DNA of 22,064 nucleotides from a virus (taxonomy: Duplodnaviria > Heunggongvirae > Uroviricota > Caudoviricetes): positions 1 through 22,064 of IMG/VR virus record IMGVR_UViG_3300013800_000001. The stretch is one strand, 5' to 3'. A model generated the notes under the pieces. It saw only the letters and a program-made list of their open reading frames with translations. It searched no databases and had not been told where the DNA came from. The stretch's first letter is position 1; each line of letters begins with the position of its first letter. Below, piece after piece: positions 12,194-21,917 of the stretch. The translations under genes and the position numbers were made by a program.

Positions 12194-15100
12194 CTATTGG
12201 GCACTACCGCCGTCTTTAAAATTCGTGTTTACTGGAGCTTGTACTGAAATTCCACTAGCCTGCAACAGTCCACGTAGAGTACGTGATGTTTTAGGTTCTT
12301 TACTTGAAATACCTAGCTGGTTTTTACCTTCTTTTGCTTCAGATAACTGTCTCCATCTATAGCTAGGAATATATTTAGCTGCCTCTTCTGGTGTGAGCAG
12401 ACCAGCGTATGATGTAATGTTTGGGACAAAAGCTTCTCCAAATGTTCTTGCACCATACCCAAGTTTTTCTAGTCCTGTGGCGTCAACAGGATACAGCGGT
12501 TGTCCAAACTGACCCTGTGGGCGAATAGCTTCTCCAAGTATAAGAGGTTGAATCAGATAGTCAAACAATACACTTCCAGCTGGATCTTTTAGTATAGGAG
12601 AACCTTGTAATGCTTGTGTAAGCTGCTCTCTTGCAGAATCACCATAGTTAGTCTGGCTAGGATTGAACATGTTCAAAGAATAGTATGGGATCATACTAGC
12701 CATGTTCAAATATATAGGATTCTTTTCGAAGAATGGTAGACGGAACATCCCAGGTTGGTTCAAGTAAGAATAAAAGTCAGTATCCAAAGCTTTTTTCTCT
12801 AGTGGAGTCTTTGTCCCTCCAAAATCCTTCATAGCAAAATTGACCTTGTTAAACGCAGCTGGGTTATAAGCTAGTGTTTGACCTGTTTTTAGGGCCATTC
12901 CATACATGAATGATACAAACGGAGATCCCATCAATGGCATATTTCGAAGAACTCTAACGGCCGCTGGCATAGCGTTATAGTTCAAATACATAGCATTTGC
13001 CAGTTCTATAGCTGACTTTGGCGATAGACGATAAAGATTCTGTCCATCTTTTGCATACTTTCCTAAAGCTAATTCTTCAGGAGTCATATTGATAAGATGA
13101 CGCATTTGTCGAAGCTGGTTTATATCATAACCATCAACAGTTGCTCTAAGAAACGTAGCCATTTTAAAGGTCTGGTCAATCTTCTCATAACCTGAAGGCA
13201 TCTTATTCAAAGTGAAATCAAGAAGCTTCCATGCAATATTTGATGGATCTGACTTAGCCTTCTCAGCTATATGGTCAAACATAGCAGCTGTGGCTCTAGA
13301 GTTGAACATTTCATTAGAAAGCATACCTGTACCAATATCTGCTCTTGATACCTCTTTCCCTGCTTTAATGATCCCTCTAACAGGCTCTGTACCGGCGTTC
13401 ATTCTTATTTCTGCCAACTCATCCATTGCTCCCCTTAGGCTATCTTTTATATCATCTACCTTTACAGCAGATGACAACATTCCATTATCTCTTCCTCTCT
13501 GTAGAAGTACCTCTGCGTAATCATTAGCGTTAAGAAAGCTCAAGTCTCCAAATGTACCTCTAGCGGCAGTCTTATTATCTAAAATACCCCTTCTAATCAG
13601 GTTCTCATCGCCAAGTGATTTACCGGCGCTCATTAGAAGACCATCCAGAAAAGCTGCTGATCCAGACTTATTACGATACATATCAAAAGATTGCTTCAAT
13701 CGAGCAATAAATTGTGGGCTAACATCCCCATTTGCCATGTGGGTCATGATCATGTTTCCTACAACAGCGTTCGTCCAAGCAGTAGGAGATGCTCCAACTT
13801 TTGCAGCACGAAATATACCCATAGCTTGGTCGTACTTGTCCATAACGTTCTTACCAATAGCTACAGCCTTATCCTTATTCTTGTTTGTTTGGATAGTATA
13901 AGACTTGATTCCTCCCATCATCTTATCGAACCATTTGACTCCAGTTTCTTCCAAAGCTCCAGAATTTACTATTTTAGCGATATCTTCCATAGTTATCTGT
14001 TCTCCACCAATTTTTTCATTGGCAATACGAAGAGCATTCTCCATTGGATCTGCAGATATGAATGTATTAGGGTTCTTTAGGATAGATGCCGTATCATCAA
14101 CGCCATTTACAATATCTGGTGCAGCTTCAGCTACCTTTGTTTCTAGTCCAGTTCCAGCCAATTTTGCTACCATTGTATCTACCTCTTTTGCTGTAGGTAA
14201 CGCTGATACTGATTCTGTATCTATGCCGAATGGTACTTTCACAGGACTGGCAGCCTTAACAGCTGAAGAAAACTCTTCTGCACCCTGTTTTAAGAATGGC
14301 TCAATAGATTCTCCCCTCAAATGAGCATTTATAGCCCCTTTCATATCAGCCCCTTGTCCGAGTGATTCCTGGACAACATCCTTAATCCTCGCCTGTCTAA
14401 CCCATTCAACAGGGTCATAGATAAAATTATCCAATATCTTAGCTCCATTGGGAGTAGATTCAGCTGCTTTTTTTATTAAATCTCCTAGTCCTAATCTATA
14501 TGATCCAGAGAATAGACTTCCACCTATACCCTTACCTTGAGAAACGATACTAGCAGCAGTAATACCACTCAGGTCTTCCCATGAATTTGTAGTCTTGATA
14601 GCGGCCTCTCCTAGCTTTTTAAATGCGTCTGATTTTCTAAAGAATGGAGTATATCTACCTGCCACAGAGGCTTTTTCTAATATACTTGACTTCCCAGCTA
14701 TTGAAAGTCCTTTTAGAGCGCCTTCACCGGTCTGGACGCCTTTATAAAGACCCATTCCAAGTCTTGGAACTAAGGCCCCTGTACCCATTGTTGCCCAGTT
14801 TACTGGGTCCATTGTTATATCCAAAGCAAAACCAAGTGGCGCTGCTACTGCCCATGGGACATTAGAGTTTTTCAATACATCTCCAAACGTATTCTTATTT
14901 CTAACCATGTTATCAGCTACATCTTGCTGAAGAGAGCCTTTCCCTTGTCCAGTAAAATGCTTTGTAGCTCCAACAACTCCATAAAGTGGCCTAGAAAGGT
15001 AATCTAATGTAGAGCGAAAAAACCCAGGTGAGTCTTCTCCAGAGTCTGCGGCGTTCTTTTGTTTTGCATCAGTTCCGTACCATTTTGTCTTTAGTCTTGA

Positions 15101-15295
15101 ATCTTCAAGGCTTTGTATCTGACTATTGATACGATTAAGAGACTCCTGATCAGAAATATCAGAAGCTGTAGGTTTTCCATTCCCACCAAGTGCTGTAGGA
15201 GATGACCTTAACTGACTGTCGAATCTTCCTGCTTCTTGTTGGAGATTTGATATTTGTCTCTCAAGATTAGGAATATCTGAAGGTTTTGTTGCCAT
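12194..15295 (-). CDS. Large putative internal virion (ejection/pilot) protein
   Basis: 1033 aa, Ala/Gly-rich and helical, with glycine-rich hydrophobic stretches (APLGFALDITMDPVNWATMGTG) typical of podovirus-like core proteins. No catalytic motif recognised. Confidence 0.5.
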   Translation of the reverse strand: MATKPSDIPNLERQISNLQQEAGRFDSQLRSSPTALGGNGKPTASDISDQESLNRINSQIQSLEDSRLKTKWYGTDAKQKNAADSGEDSPGFFRSTLDYLSRPLYGVVGATKHFTGQGKGSLQQDVADNMVRNKNTFGDVLKNSNVPWAVAAPLGFALDITMDPVNWATMGTGALVPRLGMGLYKGVQTGEGALKGLSIAGKSSILEKASVAGRYTPFFRKSDAFKKLGEAAIKTTNSWEDLSGITAASIVSQGKGIGGSLFSGSYRLGLGDLIKKAAESTPNGAKILDNFIYDPVEWVRQARIKDVVQESLGQGADMKGAINAHLRGESIEPFLKQGAEEFSSAVKAASPVKVPFGIDTESVSALPTAKEVDTMVAKLAGTGLETKVAEAAPDIVNGVDDTASILKNPNTFISADPMENALRIANEKIGGEQITMEDIAKIVNSGALEETGVKWFDKMMGGIKSYTIQTNKNKDKAVAIGKNVMDKYDQAMGIFRAAKVGASPTAWTNAVVGNMIMTHMANGDVSPQFIARLKQSFDMYRNKSGSAAFLDGLLMSAGKSLGDENLIRRGILDNKTAARGTFGDLSFLNANDYAEVLLQRGRDNGMLSSAVKVDDIKDSLRGAMDELAEIRMNAGTEPVRGIIKAGKEVSRADIGTGMLSNEMFNSRATAAMFDHIAEKAKSDPSNIAWKLLDFTLNKMPSGYEKIDQTFKMATFLRATVDGYDINQLRQMRHLINMTPEELALGKYAKDGQNLYRLSPKSAIELANAMYLNYNAMPAAVRVLRNMPLMGSPFVSFMYGMALKTGQTLAYNPAAFNKVNFAMKDFGGTKTPLEKKALDTDFYSYLNQPGMFRLPFFEKNPIYLNMASMIPYYSLNMFNPSQTNYGDSAREQLTQALQGSPILKDPAGSVLFDYLIQPLILGEAIRPQGQFGQPLYPVDATGLEKLGYGARTFGEAFVPNITSYAGLLTPEEAAKYIPSYRWRQLSEAKEGKNQLGISSKEPKTSRTLRGLLQASGISVQAPVNTNFKDGGSAQ

Positions 15296-15320
15296 GATGC
15301 AACTATACTACAATCCCACT

Positions 15321-15716
15321 TTATTCGATAACTCTTCTATTGAGTATTTTCTCTCTTGGGTCAAGTGCTCCTTCATACCCTTCCTTTTCTGCTACCTTAG
15401 CGAAATACTTCCTCCAAGCATCTTTAGGGTAAAACTTGATCATGTATTTACCAGTTATCATCTTCTGATACTGACCAGCCCATCCTATTTTGTCTTTTTG
15501 CCTTACTAGAGCTATATCTCCGAGATGAGGGAGCCTAACTACTCCATTTTCCTTCAATTCAGATGTTAATAGCTTCACAAGGCCTTCATAGAATAGTTTT
15601 ATAGTCCTTTGATCAACATAGTTGTTGTATTCAGACAAAAGACGAAAAAAACGGGCTTCGTCAAAAGCTCCGCTTTTCTTTAATGCTTTTATATCTATCT
15701 TTGGTGTGTGCGCCAT
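15321..15716 (-). CDS. HU/IHF-like DNA-binding protein
   Basis: 131 aa. ELKENGVVRLPHLGDIALV...MIKFYPKDAWRKYF matches the HU beta-sheet/arm/C-helix pattern. Lacks the usual RNP arm motif. Confidence 0.65.
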   Translation of the reverse strand: MAHTPKIDIKALKKSGAFDEARFFRLLSEYNNYVDQRTIKLFYEGLVKLLTSELKENGVVRLPHLGDIALVRQKDKIGWAGQYQKMITGKYMIKFYPKDAWRKYFAKVAEKEGYEGALDPREKILNRRVIE

Positions 15717-15719
15717 AAT

Positions 15720-16060
15720 CCTTGATATGCATAATAATGACGGTGAGACTACTTTTTACTCACGCATACGCCCCTAAACCAACTTTTATTTTTGCGGTGA
15801 TACACACCCATGTGTATTAACCGGGACTACCCCTTAGGAGAGGGACACTTGTCCAAAGTAGCGTAATCAGTCACCCGTTTGCAAGTAGGTTTCTAATCCT
15901 TTTGTAGCTACTGGCTCATTTAGTTTATTTGGAGCCTCTTGACGCTATAGTCATAGTTATTTGTACGTAATACCACCCTACTGGACCCTATTGTCTTTCA
16001 AGTGTGCCTTATCGCCTAGCAAGCGATTCCTCAGCCACGTCATTATTATAAATATCAAGG
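15720..16060 (-). ncRNA. Unassigned ~340-nt structured RNA or 5' leader closed by a 23-bp terminal stem
   Basis: 16060-16038 pairs with 15742-15720 (21/23 Watson-Crick, plus one U.G on the minus strand). Many nested helices, no long ORF, and the predicted TSS (~16063) lies just upstream of the 5' arm. Confidence 0.75.
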
Positions 16061-16069
16061 TACTTTTAG

Positions 16070-16098
16070 ATGATACACAACTGCTAACGTATTGTCAA
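16070..16098 (-). promoter_or_regulatory. Sigma70-type promoter driving the ncRNA/HU/head operon
   Basis: Minus strand TTGACA (16098-16093), 17-nt spacer, TATCAT (16075-16070). Confidence 0.75.
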
Positions 16099-16120
16099 GT
16101 CTTTTAGACTCTTGTATATT
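16092..16120 (+). promoter_or_regulatory. Sigma70-type promoter driving the plus-strand gene
   Basis: TTGTCA (16092-16097), 17-nt spacer, TATATT (16115-16120). Its -35 overlaps that of the minus-strand promoter. Confidence 0.65.
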
Positions 16121-16125
16121 AAGGG

Positions 16126-16150
16126 TAGTTTTTTAACAATAGAACCAGAC
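16126..16150. repeat. Left arm of a 25-bp inverted repeat
   Basis: tagttttttaacaatagaaccagac. 23/25 match to the reverse complement of 17010-17034, with the inner 17 bp perfect. Confidence 0.9.
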
Positions 16151-16163
16151 ATATAAACTTTGG

Positions 16164-16195
16164 GCAAGAAGTCGCATTTTGTTGCGCAAGAAGTC
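16164..16195. repeat. Two 10-bp direct repeats GCAAGAAGTC, 22 bp apart
   Basis: Copies at 16164-16173 and 16186-16195, in the leader of the plus-strand gene. Confidence 0.75.
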
Positions 16196-16211
16196 CCTAC
16201 AACACACACAT

Positions 16212-16988
16212 ATGTTAAAGAAAGATTACGAAGTTCAAGTGATTATCAATGGAAAGCCTGTTAGAGAATTTTCGCATAACGGAAAGGTATACATTGAAGG
16301 AAGAAAAAATACTCGTTTTTCTATTAGAATAAAGAATAATTCCTACACCAGGAAGTTATTTGTACCCACTATTGATGGATTATCAGTCATGAATGGAGAA
16401 GAGGGCAGTTATTCGTCTAGCGGATATATAGTTCCTGCTTATAGCTCAAGGACAATAGAAGGATGGAGAACAAGCGATAAAGAAGTAGCTGAGTTTTATT
16501 TCTCTGCACCGGAGGGTTCATACAGGAAAAGAATGAAGAAAGGAAATAACCTAGGTGCTATAGGAGTGGCAGTATTTGAAGAGAGACAAAATTACACAGT
16601 AACAACAACCATAGGACAGCCCTGGTATTCAACTGGTGCTAGCATTACACCCAATCACCATTGGTATGGCGGAAACACATTTACAAGTGGAGTAGGTGGA
16701 AGTAATTCTGTAAACTGCTCATCACTATCTCCTCAATCTGCAGACAATCAAGTACTGCTTAGATCAGCAAAAAGCGTAAAACAAGCCATCGGTACTGGAT
16801 TCGGTGAATACAAAGAAAGTTCAGTTATATCAGTCAATTTCGATAGATGTACTAACCCAGTTGCCGTGTTTGAGATACTATACAACACTAAAGAAGAACT
16901 CCAGAAAGCTGGGGTAAATATGCAAAAGGAGCCCACGTATGTGACTCCTGAAGCGTTTCCAGGTCAATACTGTAAAGCCCCTCGTTAA
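16212..16988 (+). CDS. Conserved hypothetical protein, the only plus-strand gene
   Basis: ATG at 16212 preferred over TTG at 16179. YIEG...IRIKNN...TIDGLSV...GYIV...IEGWR...AEFYF...LGAIGVAVFEE and the C-terminal IGTGFGE...FDR...PEAFP resemble a widespread uncharacterised bacterial/phage family (from memory). Confidence 0.8.
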   Translation: MLKKDYEVQVIINGKPVREFSHNGKVYIEGRKNTRFSIRIKNNSYTRKLFVPTIDGLSVMNGEEGSYSSSGYIVPAYSSRTIEGWRTSDKEVAEFYFSAPEGSYRKRMKKGNNLGAIGVAVFEERQNYTVTTTIGQPWYSTGASITPNHHWYGGNTFTSGVGGSNSVNCSSLSPQSADNQVLLRSAKSVKQAIGTGFGEYKESSVISVNFDRCTNPVAVFEILYNTKEELQKAGVNMQKEPTYVTPEAFPGQYCKAPR

Positions 16989-20038: not shown

Positions 20039-21214
20039 TTAACTGCCCTTTACGTTGATAATTTGACGCAAAATATGCTTTACTCTCACTAATTCTTTGC
20101 TATTTTCCATTACATTATCAATGTCTTTGTATGCTGACGGCAATTCATCAATATAATCCTCGGATCGTCTTACAACAATACCCGCTAACTCTCTATCAAA
20201 GTCATCCATTGTGAATCTACGACGTGCCTCACTACGTGAGAATCGTCTTCCAGCTCCGTGTGGGGCTGAATGATAGCTCATTTTATTGGCTAATCCCTCT
20301 ACAATGTAGCTTTTTGTGCCCATTGATCCTGGTATTACCCCTAGTTGCCCGTCGTTCATCTGGATAGCACCCTTTCTTGTTATCCACATATTCTTTCCGA
20401 AGTGGTTCTCCATCTGAGTAAAGTTGTGATGACAGTTTATTCTATCAATTTCAATATCTTTTGCTCTACCACCCTCATCGAAGAAGGCGTAAGACATTTC
20501 TTCAAGCACACGATCCATCATTTCTTCTCGGTTTAGACGTGCATAATCCTGAGACCATAGTAGGTCATAGATATAGTCATCAAAACCTTCAATACCAGTC
20601 GGTAGATAGGATAGATCTTTATCTGGTAGCTTGATGTGCATGGTATCCATTAGCTTCATAGCCACTTTTATATGACGATCTGCTAAACGATTTCCCACTC
20701 CTCTTGAACCAGAGTGTAGTACTACCCATACCCTATCCTCTTCATCCAAACAAACCTCAATAAAGTGATTCCCAGAACCAAGAGTCCCCAATTGGTTTTT
20801 CCAATCCTTACAGGCATCATCATAGTAATCCTTCTTTTTAGCATCTAGAGCTTTAACCCTTGCTAGGGCTGTTCCTTGTATTTTATTATTTTTAGCTCCT
20901 GCATTTAAAGGGATTCTACGCTCTATTCCTGCTCGAATAGATTCTAGATCTTCTGGCAAGTCCTTAAAAAAGAACTTTGTCTTAACGGCAATCATTCCAC
21001 ATCCGATATCAACACCAACTGCTGCTGGTATAATAGCGTTTTCAGTAGCGATAACTGAACCAACACAGGCACCCTTTCCAAGGTGGGCATCAGGCATAAC
21101 AGCTACGCCATGAACAAACGGCAATCCTGCCGCATTTTTTACTTGATCGAAAGCACCGCTTTCTAACTCTTCCTTAGGTAGGAAAAGTCTTAATTTTTCG
21201 TTTATTACTTCCAT
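20039..21214 (-). CDS. rtcB: RtcB 3'-phosphate/5'-OH RNA ligase
   Basis: All catalytic motifs present: MPDAH, VGVDIGCG, GTLGSGNHFIE, LHSGSRG, HHN, IPGSMG, HGAGR (guanylylated His) and ELPSAYK. Confidence 0.97.
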   Translation of the reverse strand: MEVINEKLRLFLPKEELESGAFDQVKNAAGLPFVHGVAVMPDAHLGKGACVGSVIATENAIIPAAVGVDIGCGMIAVKTKFFFKDLPEDLESIRAGIERRIPLNAGAKNNKIQGTALARVKALDAKKKDYYDDACKDWKNQLGTLGSGNHFIEVCLDEEDRVWVVLHSGSRGVGNRLADRHIKVAMKLMDTMHIKLPDKDLSYLPTGIEGFDDYIYDLLWSQDYARLNREEMMDRVLEEMSYAFFDEGGRAKDIEIDRINCHHNFTQMENHFGKNMWITRKGAIQMNDGQLGVIPGSMGTKSYIVEGLANKMSYHSAPHGAGRRFSRSEARRRFTMDDFDRELAGIVVRRSEDYIDELPSAYKDIDNVMENSKELVRVKHILRQIINVKGS

Positions 21215-21227
21215 ATAGTTTTTTAAT

Positions 21228-21917
21228 TTAATTTCGTCCCCTTGTTTCAGGGTATAAGTCTAATACAACGTCAGATTGAAAGACTTCTTTGGTATCTACA
21301 TCCATAAGAGATAGTTTTCCTTCCCATCCACCACCAGTGTCCATAAACCAGACATTACCGTACTTTATGGGCTTATGAGAAAACTTATATATGCTCGTAT
21401 GCCCAACATAAACCTCATTGAAGGCTGGATACGATATTCCGTTTTCATCATACATCCACTTTTTGTCCCACAATTGCCTATCCCACATCAAAACCTGATT
21501 ATTCTGTTCTTCAATAGGTAAGTTTGGATCAAACCCTCCATGGACATACAGATTGTTATTCTCATCAACAAAGTAGAATTTTGTACTTTTCAAAAACTCT
21601 CTATGCTTTTGCATTAACTCTGGATGTCGCTCAACATAGCCATTGTAGCTAGCTTGACCTCCCTGCAATAGCCAAACATCTGGCTGTTTTCCTTTTGTAA
21701 GCCAATCTTTTAACCATTGGTCATGATTCCCACGAACAAATACGAGATTTTTTATCTTCATTATCTCCTCAATCAGCTCTGGCACCTCTGGCCATCCATC
21801 TGCGACATCTCCTAGACAGATAAGTCTGTCATTTTCATAATCAAATTTAGATCGTTCCATTACCTGAAGAAATGATCTGTATCCGCCATGGCTATCTCCA
21901 AGTACTAGTGTTCTCAT
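21228..21917 (-). CDS. Calcineurin-like metallophosphoesterase (lambda phosphatase-like)
   Basis: GDSHG, GDVADG, RGNHD, VHGG, GHT and DTGG motifs occur in the canonical order. Confidence 0.92.
   Translation of the reverse strand: MRTLVLGDSHGGYRSFLQVMERSKFDYENDRLICLGDVADGWPEVPELIEEIMKIKNLVFVRGNHDQWLKDWLTKGKQPDVWLLQGGQASYNGYVERHPELMQKHREFLKSTKFYFVDENNNLYVHGGFDPNLPIEEQNNQVLMWDRQLWDKKWMYDENGISYPAFNEVYVGHTSIYKFSHKPIKYGNVWFMDTGGGWEGKLSLMDVDTKEVFQSDVVLDLYPETRGRN

Follow-up and report, generated by a model that had tools for sequence, protein, structure and literature searches.

ROOL, GOLLD, and OLE are ornate, self-assembling bacterial and phage RNAs (Kretsch et al., 2025, PMC12286853). manA (Rfam family RF01745) was described as a candidate riboswitch or cis-regulator in marine cyanophages (Weinberg et al., 2010, PMC2864571), and manA RNAs were shown by cryo-electron microscopy to form, via kissing loops, decamers built on pentamers and a cage of 60 subunits (preprint, July 2026, bioRxiv 10.64898/2026.07.01.735769). 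This report concerns an element of ~341 nt on the minus strand of the virus record IMGVR_UViG_3300013800_000001 (IMG/VR; Caudoviricetes). The window, i.e., the whole stretch of 22,064 nt that was analyzed, is the first 22 kb of this viral record of 99,376 bp, which has direct terminal repeats. The element lies at positions 15720-16060 of the window, directly upstream of a gene for an HU-like DNA-binding protein. An initial annotation, made from the sequence of the window, had proposed it to be a previously undescribed large phage non-coding RNA, a ribozyme or a regulatory leader. Here we show that the element is conserved as an RNA in phages and small-genome bacteria, and that its closest described relative is manA.

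Collection of Homologs

Homologs were reached by way of HU: homologs of the HU-like protein pointed to viral loci that have the same ~345-nt element ahead of the HU gene. An alignment of HU proteins was needed for these loci to be found, since none came out of a search of viral contigs with one HU protein. The motifs CAAAUAAACU and CAAAAAUAAAAG, common to the first three copies, were combined into a DNA pattern that was run over viral, metagenome and genome collections, and a first covariance model built from three sequences (R1) separated true copies from chance matches to the pattern, with members scoring 106-360 bits. The resulting set comprised 28 copies, each at its own locus (L numbers below), with 25 distinct sequences from phage contigs, metagenomes and metagenome-assembled genomes (MAGs) of small-genome bacteria. 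A second covariance model (R2) was made from the 25 sequences. No match was obtained by blastn when the region was compared with 50,697 phage records.

Both motifs were identical in all copies found. Relaxed DNA patterns, each lacking one of the two required motifs, added no further member among 84 new viral loci (IMG/VR); the invariance of CAAAUAAACU and CAAAAAUAAAAG is therefore not merely a matter of ascertainment, though the relaxed-pattern test was limited.

RNA Secondary Structure and Covariation

The 25 distinct copies were aligned with MAFFT without fitting to the structure, and a lightly edited structure was compared with this alignment. In total, 88.8% of the cells could pair, compared with 39-45% when the partners were slid by 1-3 columns. 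Compensatory (double) changes were found in 64 of the 68 pairs, and the covariation score was 0.758, against 0.12-0.18 for slid partners. An independent RNAalifold run on another MAFFT alignment, likewise unfitted, predicted 69 pairs, 65 of them compensatory. Covariation among homologs, which the initial annotation had named as a check, was thus found throughout the structure, and the element is strongly supported as a real, conserved, structured non-coding RNA. Its parts are as follows.

15720-16060, minus strand: whole structured RNA, ~341 nt including both strands of the closing stem; covariance-model matches of 360 bits (R1) and 275 bits (R2)
16038-16060, minus strand: helix 1 (closing stem), 5′ strand; the helix has ~21 bp in almost all members, with compensatory changes at every pair
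15720-15742, minus strand: helix 1, 3′ strand; holds AAGGA (15724-15720), and 3 nt separate its end from the HU start codon at 15716
16006-16036, minus strand: helices 2 and 3, a covarying hairpin with a manA-like internal loop (G GCUGAGGAAU ... AUAAGGC), aligned to manA P2
15974-16004, minus strand: helices 4-6, a small bulged hairpin, CACUU...GGGUG around GAC/GUC, in the place of the manA three-hairpin domain
15766-15971, minus strand: helix 7, AUUACG (15971-15966) with CGUAU (15770-15766), 4-5 bp in the window; aligned to the P4 stem of manA, with a large inserted domain inside it
15913-15936, minus strand: helix 8, GGCUC/GAGCC hairpin with 100% of cells paired and four of five pairs compensatory; its loop CAAAUAAACU (15931-15922) is one of the two invariant motifs
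15857-15912, minus strand: long arm with base AGUAGC/GCUACU (helix 9), inner stems and an apical loop of ~10 nt
15824-15854, minus strand: helices 10 and 11, GGAC/GUCC around UCCC/GGGG; the loop carries pseudoknot 1
15795-15823, minus strand: helix 12, CGGU..AUACACA / UGUGUAU..ACCG hairpin, all 11 pairs of which show compensatory changes; its loop, UGGG/UAGG, is conserved
15783-15794, minus strand: A-rich single strand CAAAAAUAAAAG, the other invariant motif, required by the first homolog search
15743-15763, minus strand: helix 13, GUGAG/CUCAC closing the 11-nt loop UAAAAAGUAGU; corresponds to the 3′ hairpin of manA (GGUAnAnAGUAAUCC)

The 23-position closing stem (16060-16038 with 15742-15720), which the initial annotation had recognized, was found to contain 21 Watson-Crick pairs, one G-U pair and one U-C mismatch in the window, where no such stem is expected by chance. 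Also four local helices that it had drawn (AUCGCUU/AGGCGAU, GGCUC/GAGCC, CGGU..AUACACA/UGUGUAU..ACCG and GUGAG/CUCAC) are present and covary in the homologs. Two of its proposed pairings were not conserved. The long-range helix ACACUUG/CAAGUGU (16009-15995 with 15858-15841) is perfect in the window and is not kept in the homologs, where CACUU pairs locally with GGGUG in helix 4. A pairing of the loop AAAGUAGU with GCUACUUU had also been suggested; in the conserved structure, GCUACU pairs with AGUAGC as the base of the long arm.

Paired columns contained 140 G-U cells and 34 A-C cells. This agrees with the earlier view that G·U pairs favor the minus strand; it shows that the RNA is read from the minus strand of the window, and a DNA-level explanation fails. 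Such an explanation would take the element for a miniature inverted-repeat transposable element, a cruciform or a protein-binding site, for which the 23-bp terminal inverted repeats around ~300 bp are a suitable frame, and in folding energy the plus strand is no worse than the minus strand. However, the element is single-copy in each genome (one copy in the whole 99-kb genome of the window), its internal helices covary throughout, the excess of G-U over A-C is explicable only by RNA of one strand, and no target-site duplication was found at its ends, leaving next to no probability for a DNA element of any of these kinds. A miniature inverted-repeat transposable element in particular was ruled out by the single copy, the interior covarying as RNA and the absence of a duplication at the ends. 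Readings of the element as an origin or a small open reading frame (ORF) were also rejected.

Folding energy relative to shuffled sequences, which the initial annotation had suggested as a further check, was only moderately better than that of the shuffles, with single-sequence z-scores of -3.2 on the minus strand and -6.1 on the plus strand. The closing stem drives both values, and folding energy alone is a weak test for this element.

Loop Contacts and the Self-Complementary Apical Loop

Beyond the nested helices, two covarying loop contacts (pseudoknots, PK1 and PK2) and one self-complementary loop were found.

16017-16021, minus strand: PK2 loop side, UGCUA, loop of helix 3
15943-15947, minus strand: PK2 partner, UAGCG, junction 5′ of the GGCUC hairpin
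15834-15840, minus strand: PK1 loop side, CUCCUAA, loop of the UCCC/GGGG hairpin
15771-15777, minus strand: PK1 partner, UUAGGGG, just 5′ of the helix 7 3′ strand
15879-15884, minus strand: self-complementary hexamer UUGCAA, apical loop of the long arm; candidate homodimeric kissing loop

PK2 is the stronger of the two contacts. Its two sides stay complementary in many sequence versions (permutation z = 10, 0/200), and the duplexes of relatives include UUUUUGCCG/CGGCAAAGA, UCAACG/CGUUGA, UGAUCGU/ACGAUCG and UUAGUAUA/UAUACUAA. PK1 (z = 4.8, 0/200) is formed by covarying duplexes such as CCUAA/UUAGG, CUGUA/UACGG, AUCUUG/CAAGAU, GGUUG/CAACC and CGUUU/AAACG. The pairing of CUCCUAAG with UUUAGGGG had initially been drawn as a nested helix; the pairing itself is real and conserved, but joins a hairpin loop to a 3′ junction strand and thus makes a pseudoknot. 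Among the loop combinations, only L2a × J6/7 and L11 × 3′ junction exceeded the permutation controls; no complementarity above controls was detected between the 3′ hairpin loop and either the UGGG loop or the J6/7 strand, or for any other loop pair. Judged from their complementarity, PK1 and PK2 could be either intramolecular or intermolecular contacts.

A palindromic hexamer was found at the same apical-loop position of the long arm in all 25 sequences, in eight versions: CUCGAG, CUGCAG, UUGCAA (window), UACGUA, CUUAAG, CCUAGG, AUGCAU and UAAUUA. By comparison, a palindromic hexamer of any kind occurred in 15% of the windows of equal size elsewhere in these RNAs and in 31% of shuffled loops. 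Change that always keeps self-complementarity is as predicted by a two-fold kissing contact between two copies, and the apical loop looks built for pairing with a second copy of the RNA.

The HIV-1 dimerization initiation site (DIS) hairpin is a palindromic kissing-loop dimerization site, and the packaging RNA (pRNA) of phage phi29 forms rings through loop-loop contacts. Like the DIS hairpin and pRNA, the window RNA has a hairpin loop with a 6-nt self-complementary core and unpaired purine-rich flanks, and the core varies by lineage and stays self-complementary. These are unrelated molecules, and the likeness, which concerns the mode of self-association only, is a lead and not a test.

Relation to manA and Other Known RNAs

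Searches of the window element against Rfam 15 gave no family at the gathering score and nothing relevant at E ≤ 10, and ARAGORN found no tRNA or tmRNA in it. No model of tRNA, tmRNA, RNase P RNA, 6S RNA, group I/II introns or other curated RNA families matched, in agreement with the initial annotation, which could not assign the element to a tRNA, tmRNA, RNase P, 6S RNA or riboswitch. A ribozyme, either self-cleaving, self-processing or circularizing, would be compatible with the size, the compact pseudoknotted fold, the identical single-stranded motifs and the joining of the two ends by the closing stem. However, no ribozyme family of Rfam matched even at E ≤ 10, no joints or circular junctions were found in library contigs of the region, and the behavior of the closest relative, manA, is assembly and not catalysis. 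Nothing that was found points to a ribozyme, and we regard this part of the initial proposal as very improbable.

manA was the only Rfam family ever to appear among the members. RF01745 gave full-length matches, with ends coincident with those of the element, in at least eight members (including L018, L116, L118, L071, L067, L040, and L026). These matches scored 18-36 bits with E values down to 1e-5, all below the gathering score of 55.2 bits. In the reverse direction, R2 run with filters off over the manA locus of cyanophage P-SSM2 ranked the annotated manA RNA first (18.9 bits, E 1.3e-5; next match 5.5 bits), while manA was found neither by R1 nor by R2 with default filters over the whole P-SSM2 genome.

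The organization of the two RNAs was compared module by module. Both are multi-helix junctions closed by pairing of the two ends, with an inner closing helix and a stem at the P4 position, and their modules follow in the same order around the closing helix. The first hairpin of both has the internal loop GUG(A/G)CUGAAUAA...UAAGG; the closing helix and the hairpin with internal loop GUGaCUGAAUAA ... UAAgG that characterize manA were both found here, the latter with the family consensus UG(G/A)CUGAAnAA ... UAA(g/a)GC. The last hairpin of both has 5 bp and an 11-nt loop, UAnAnAGUAAU, and abuts the 3′ strand of the closing helix (module UG...GGUAnAnAGUAAUCC). The manA loop UAuacAguAAU of this hairpin is found in the window as GUGAG-UAAAAAGUAGU-CUCAC (15763-15743), and in the family as the consensus G-UAcAnAGUAAU-C, from which some clades vary. 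Moreover, both RNAs are phage-borne, promoter-proximal and usually located just upstream of an ORF.

The differences concern size and interior. manA is ~190 nt long, whereas the window RNA has 341 nt, the interior being ~150 nt larger, with insertions of ~150-220 nt in the alignments; the closing stem has 5 bp in manA and ~21-23 bp here, where the upstream P0 hairpin of manA is absent. One small bulged hairpin replaces the three-hairpin P3 domain, and in place of the simple P4 of manA, the P4-equivalent stem encloses ~200 extra nt, comprising the GGCUC hairpin, the long arm with the palindromic loop, two more hairpins and two A-rich strands identical in all copies. manA is known from marine cyanophages, whereas this family occurs in phages of wastewater, soil and sediment and in small-genome bacteria. 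The reciprocal covariance-model matches and the three shared sequence and structure modules tie the family to manA, and it is therefore not an entirely undescribed kind of RNA. On comparison of sequence and predicted structure, we take the family to be a distant, expanded offshoot of the manA fold that falls outside RF01745 in its present definition. The initial proposal of an undescribed large phage non-coding RNA was thus borne out as far as a conserved, structured non-coding RNA without a match at the Rfam threshold is concerned, but the RNA is related to manA, and copies are also present in bacterial chromosomes.

ROOL, GOLLD, and OLE are likewise large, pseudoknotted and phage-associated RNAs, often located beside tRNA genes, and they form homo-oligomers via loop-loop contacts, a behavior that is only predicted for the window RNA from its palindromic loop. 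They show no sequence or covariance-model similarity to it (no match to RF03087, RF02032, or RF01071) and are ~580-800 nt long, above the >500 nt that sets these RNAs apart, compared with 341 nt. YrlA Y RNAs, which occur with Ro60/Rsr, resemble the element in that their ends form a long stem, and in the clade of L058, L065, and L085 it is immediately followed by a YrlA-like RNA and a TROVE/Ro60 gene. However, no Rfam Y-RNA model matched the element, Ro60 is absent from most loci, and the window RNA is three times larger than YrlA.

Locus and Promoter

The element sits in a gap of ~500 bp between divergent genes. The minus-strand genes at the locus are the HU-like gene, a 1033-aa ORF and those of the large terminase and a P22-type portal, and a plus-strand gene begins near 16180-16213 on the other side of the gap.

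16070-16098, minus strand: sigma-70-like promoter, TTGACA (16098-16093), a 17-nt spacer and TATCAT ending at 16070; 11 of 12 matches
15321-15716, minus strand: gene for the HU-like DNA-binding protein (PF00216), directly downstream of the RNA and not part of it

The position of the promoter suggests that transcription likely starts a few nt before the closing stem at 16060, in line with the initial annotation, which had placed the stem ~3 nt after a predicted transcription start. In the family, promoter-like sites (at least 9/12) were found no more than 60 nt upstream of the RNA in 14 of 26 loci, compared with 7% of random windows. A second promoter-like site on the plus strand (16092-16120, TTGTCA-17-TATATT, 10/12) overlaps the -35 region of the RNA promoter and serves the lone plus-strand gene, which is DUF7918-like (sub-threshold).

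No terminator was found between the RNA and the HU gene in the window. A terminator-like hairpin with a U-run is present at 15662-15641 (minus strand), ~55-75 nt inside the HU coding region and over conserved codons (RFFRLL); it may have arisen by chance from the coding sequence, or it may be an attenuator ending an RNA-plus-stub transcript. Farther upstream of the RNA (~4 kb; 20039-21917, minus strand), the window encodes an RNA-repair pair, RtcB RNA ligase (PF01139, E 1e-114) beside a calcineurin-like metallophosphoesterase. DNA with at least 99% identity to window positions 15000-16700 was detected in soil metagenome contigs (runs X3 and X7) from studies other than those of the wastewater/activated-sludge samples that are its possible source; thus, the phage or a close relative is not restricted to one habitat.

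Genomic Contexts and Expression

HU follows the RNA in 9 of the 28 loci, all belonging to the clade of the window. Even in this clade, a tRNA-Met gene lies between the RNA and HU at L071, and ~1 kb with two ORFs, one of them HNH-endonuclease-like by eye, is inserted at L018 (= L003:1430-2500), which shows that the junction of RNA and HU is not obligatory. The family is specific neither to HU nor to the packaging/head operon, to which the initial annotation had tied the element.

Elsewhere the neighbors are diverse. On a phage contig (L014:5373-5964, minus strand), a family-B DNA polymerase gene and the manA-like RNA are directly followed by a tRNA-Met gene and a complete tmRNA gene (57.7 bits, above the Rfam cut-off) that encodes a tag peptide of its own. 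tRNA or tRNA-like genes also follow in L058 and L065: at L058:1637-3491, and also at L065:943-1075, the RNA precedes a tRNA-Lys-like element that scores better as YrlA (41 bits, sub-threshold), and in L058 this is followed by a TROVE/Ro60 gene and an ATP-grasp gene, i.e., a Ro60-Y RNA module headed by an extra large RNA. ORF6N genes follow the RNA in L059 and L124, and a RhuM gene in L051. At L038:9700-10118, a MazF/PemK-type toxin gene begins ~55 nt after the RNA, with no antitoxin-sized ORF between the upstream aminoacyl-tRNA synthetase gene and the toxin gene. In L121, a clean intrinsic terminator and then a Fic gene follow, beside rpsB, tsf, and prfA on a 267-kb Doudnabacteria genome contig. 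Other copies were located near gyrB, mreB, and an aminoacyl-tRNA synthetase gene, and a PIN gene is also among the neighbors.

Five small MAG genomes (0.6-1.5 Mb) contained one copy each. No copy was found in 150 other sampled Patescibacteria genomes, and the RNA is therefore not a housekeeping RNA. Rather than a housekeeping RNA or a leader specific to HU, the element behaves like a self-contained, mobile RNA gene that occurs sporadically in phages and small-genome bacteria.

The recurrence of small genes for nucleic-acid-binding or toxin-like proteins directly downstream (HU in nine loci, ORF6N, RhuM, MazF/PemK, Fic), the Ro60 gene and YrlA-like RNA of L058 and L065, and RtcB 4 kb away in the window would suit a protein-binding scaffold or decoy RNA, which would form a ribonucleoprotein with a partner encoded nearby or by the host (an HU-like protein, Ro60, a neutralized toxin or an RNA-repair enzyme). 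However, no single protein family co-occurs across the RNA family; the neighbors are the usual content of mobile and defense islands, and adjacency may reflect mobility and not partnership. We consider this explanation distinctly improbable.

As a weak hint of expression, two RNA libraries of different studies (a sediment metatranscriptome and sludge) yielded one contig each wholly inside the element, at 15749-16006 and 15773-15918, without mismatches. These contigs do not cover the flanking genes; contigs from DNA runs are also fragmentary there, so the uncovered parts are uninformative.

Proposed Role of the RNA

We consider it probable that the element is the gene for a stable, trans-acting structural RNA of ~341 nt, a distant, expanded relative of manA that associates with itself. 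With a sigma-70-like promoter of its own, the RNA would head a transcript running into the HU gene, and would fold into a multi-helix junction closed by the two-turn stem of ~21-23 bp and locked by the two pseudoknots or loop contacts. It may then be released from the downstream mRNA, or outlast it. In relatives, tRNA processing or a terminator could bring about the release; here, a cut in the double-stranded closing stem, e.g., by RNase III, is plausible and would also free the HU start region that abuts the stem. Two copies may pair loop to loop via the self-complementary hexamer of the long arm. By analogy with manA, ROOL, and GOLLD, RNA-only homo-oligomers are predicted, with the dimer as a minimum and possibly larger closed assemblies, in which the two covarying loop contacts are perhaps involved.

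Several observations speak against a self-associating, trans-acting relative of manA. The window's own copy gave no RF01745 match at E ≤ 10, nor was there one at E ≤ 1 genome-wide. Sequence-only hidden Markov models recovered only the 5′ module: the best nhmmer match in the 252-kb P-SSM2 genome falls in manA at E 1.6, which is weak alone, and manA was not ranked first in nhmmer searches with the 3′ module or the full-length profile. The matches that tie the family to manA are therefore weak, though reciprocal. The palindromic loop could instead be bound by a symmetric protein, and the RNA-library contigs are of low depth (2-4) and possibly derived from DNA. Finally, most loci have a same-strand ORF that begins 3-60 nt after the RNA, which is the layout of a 5′ leader, and in the window AAGGA lies within the closing stem, which stops 3 nt short of the HU AUG.

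The last two points belong to the main rival, a cis-acting 5′ leader, in which the RNA would stay on the downstream mRNA (here that of HU) and control its translation or stability, e.g., by a stem that holds the ribosome-binding region until it is opened or cut. The absence of a terminator before HU fits such a leader, and manA itself has been catalogued as a candidate cis-regulator (PMC2864571). The downstream genes are, however, unrelated (HU, ORF6N/RhuM, MazF-like, Fic, Ro60, tRNAs, tmRNA, and small ORFs), unlike the coherent gene set with an expression platform that marks riboswitches and leaders. In at least five loci, tRNA genes or a terminator lie between the RNA and any ORF. AAGGA is present in the stem only in the window and is not conserved in the HU-linked relatives, the always-palindromic loop would have no obvious role in a leader, and these genomes are so compact that an ORF follows almost anything. 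A leader fits the window locus, but not the family: the regulatory leader of the initial annotation is possible for HU at this locus, but cannot be the general role of the family, and we judge it unlikely as an explanation of the RNA.

A further elaboration of the preferred reading, a self-associating RNA acting in trans, is put forward tentatively, as rather improbable. The RNA could be the protomer of a new, larger RNA-only assembly, in which the manA-type core would make cyclic, pentamer-like contacts via the two loop interactions, the palindromic arm a two-fold contact, and the stem of ~22 bp would act as a strut. It would then be a mobile one-gene module of phages and candidate phyla radiation (CPR)-like bacteria, whose cage or lattice could sequester or protect cargo, such as the products of the HU, ORF6N/RhuM, MazF, and Fic genes that it precedes, or damaged RNAs together with Ro60/RtcB.

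manA, ROOL, and GOLLD are phage-borne RNAs that are now known to build RNA-only cages. The family described here extends the size range of the manA fold almost twofold, and brings two covarying pseudoknots and a clean signature of two-fold self-pairing as new features. It also widens the distribution to phages of wastewater and soil and to chromosomes of small-genome bacteria. The Rfam manA model misses this whole branch of relatives, which the 25-sequence alignment and model would allow to be annotated, and the neighborhoods of the RNA (tRNA/tmRNA arrays, Ro60/Y-RNA, RtcB, toxin-like genes, and HU) supply concrete hypotheses on its function.

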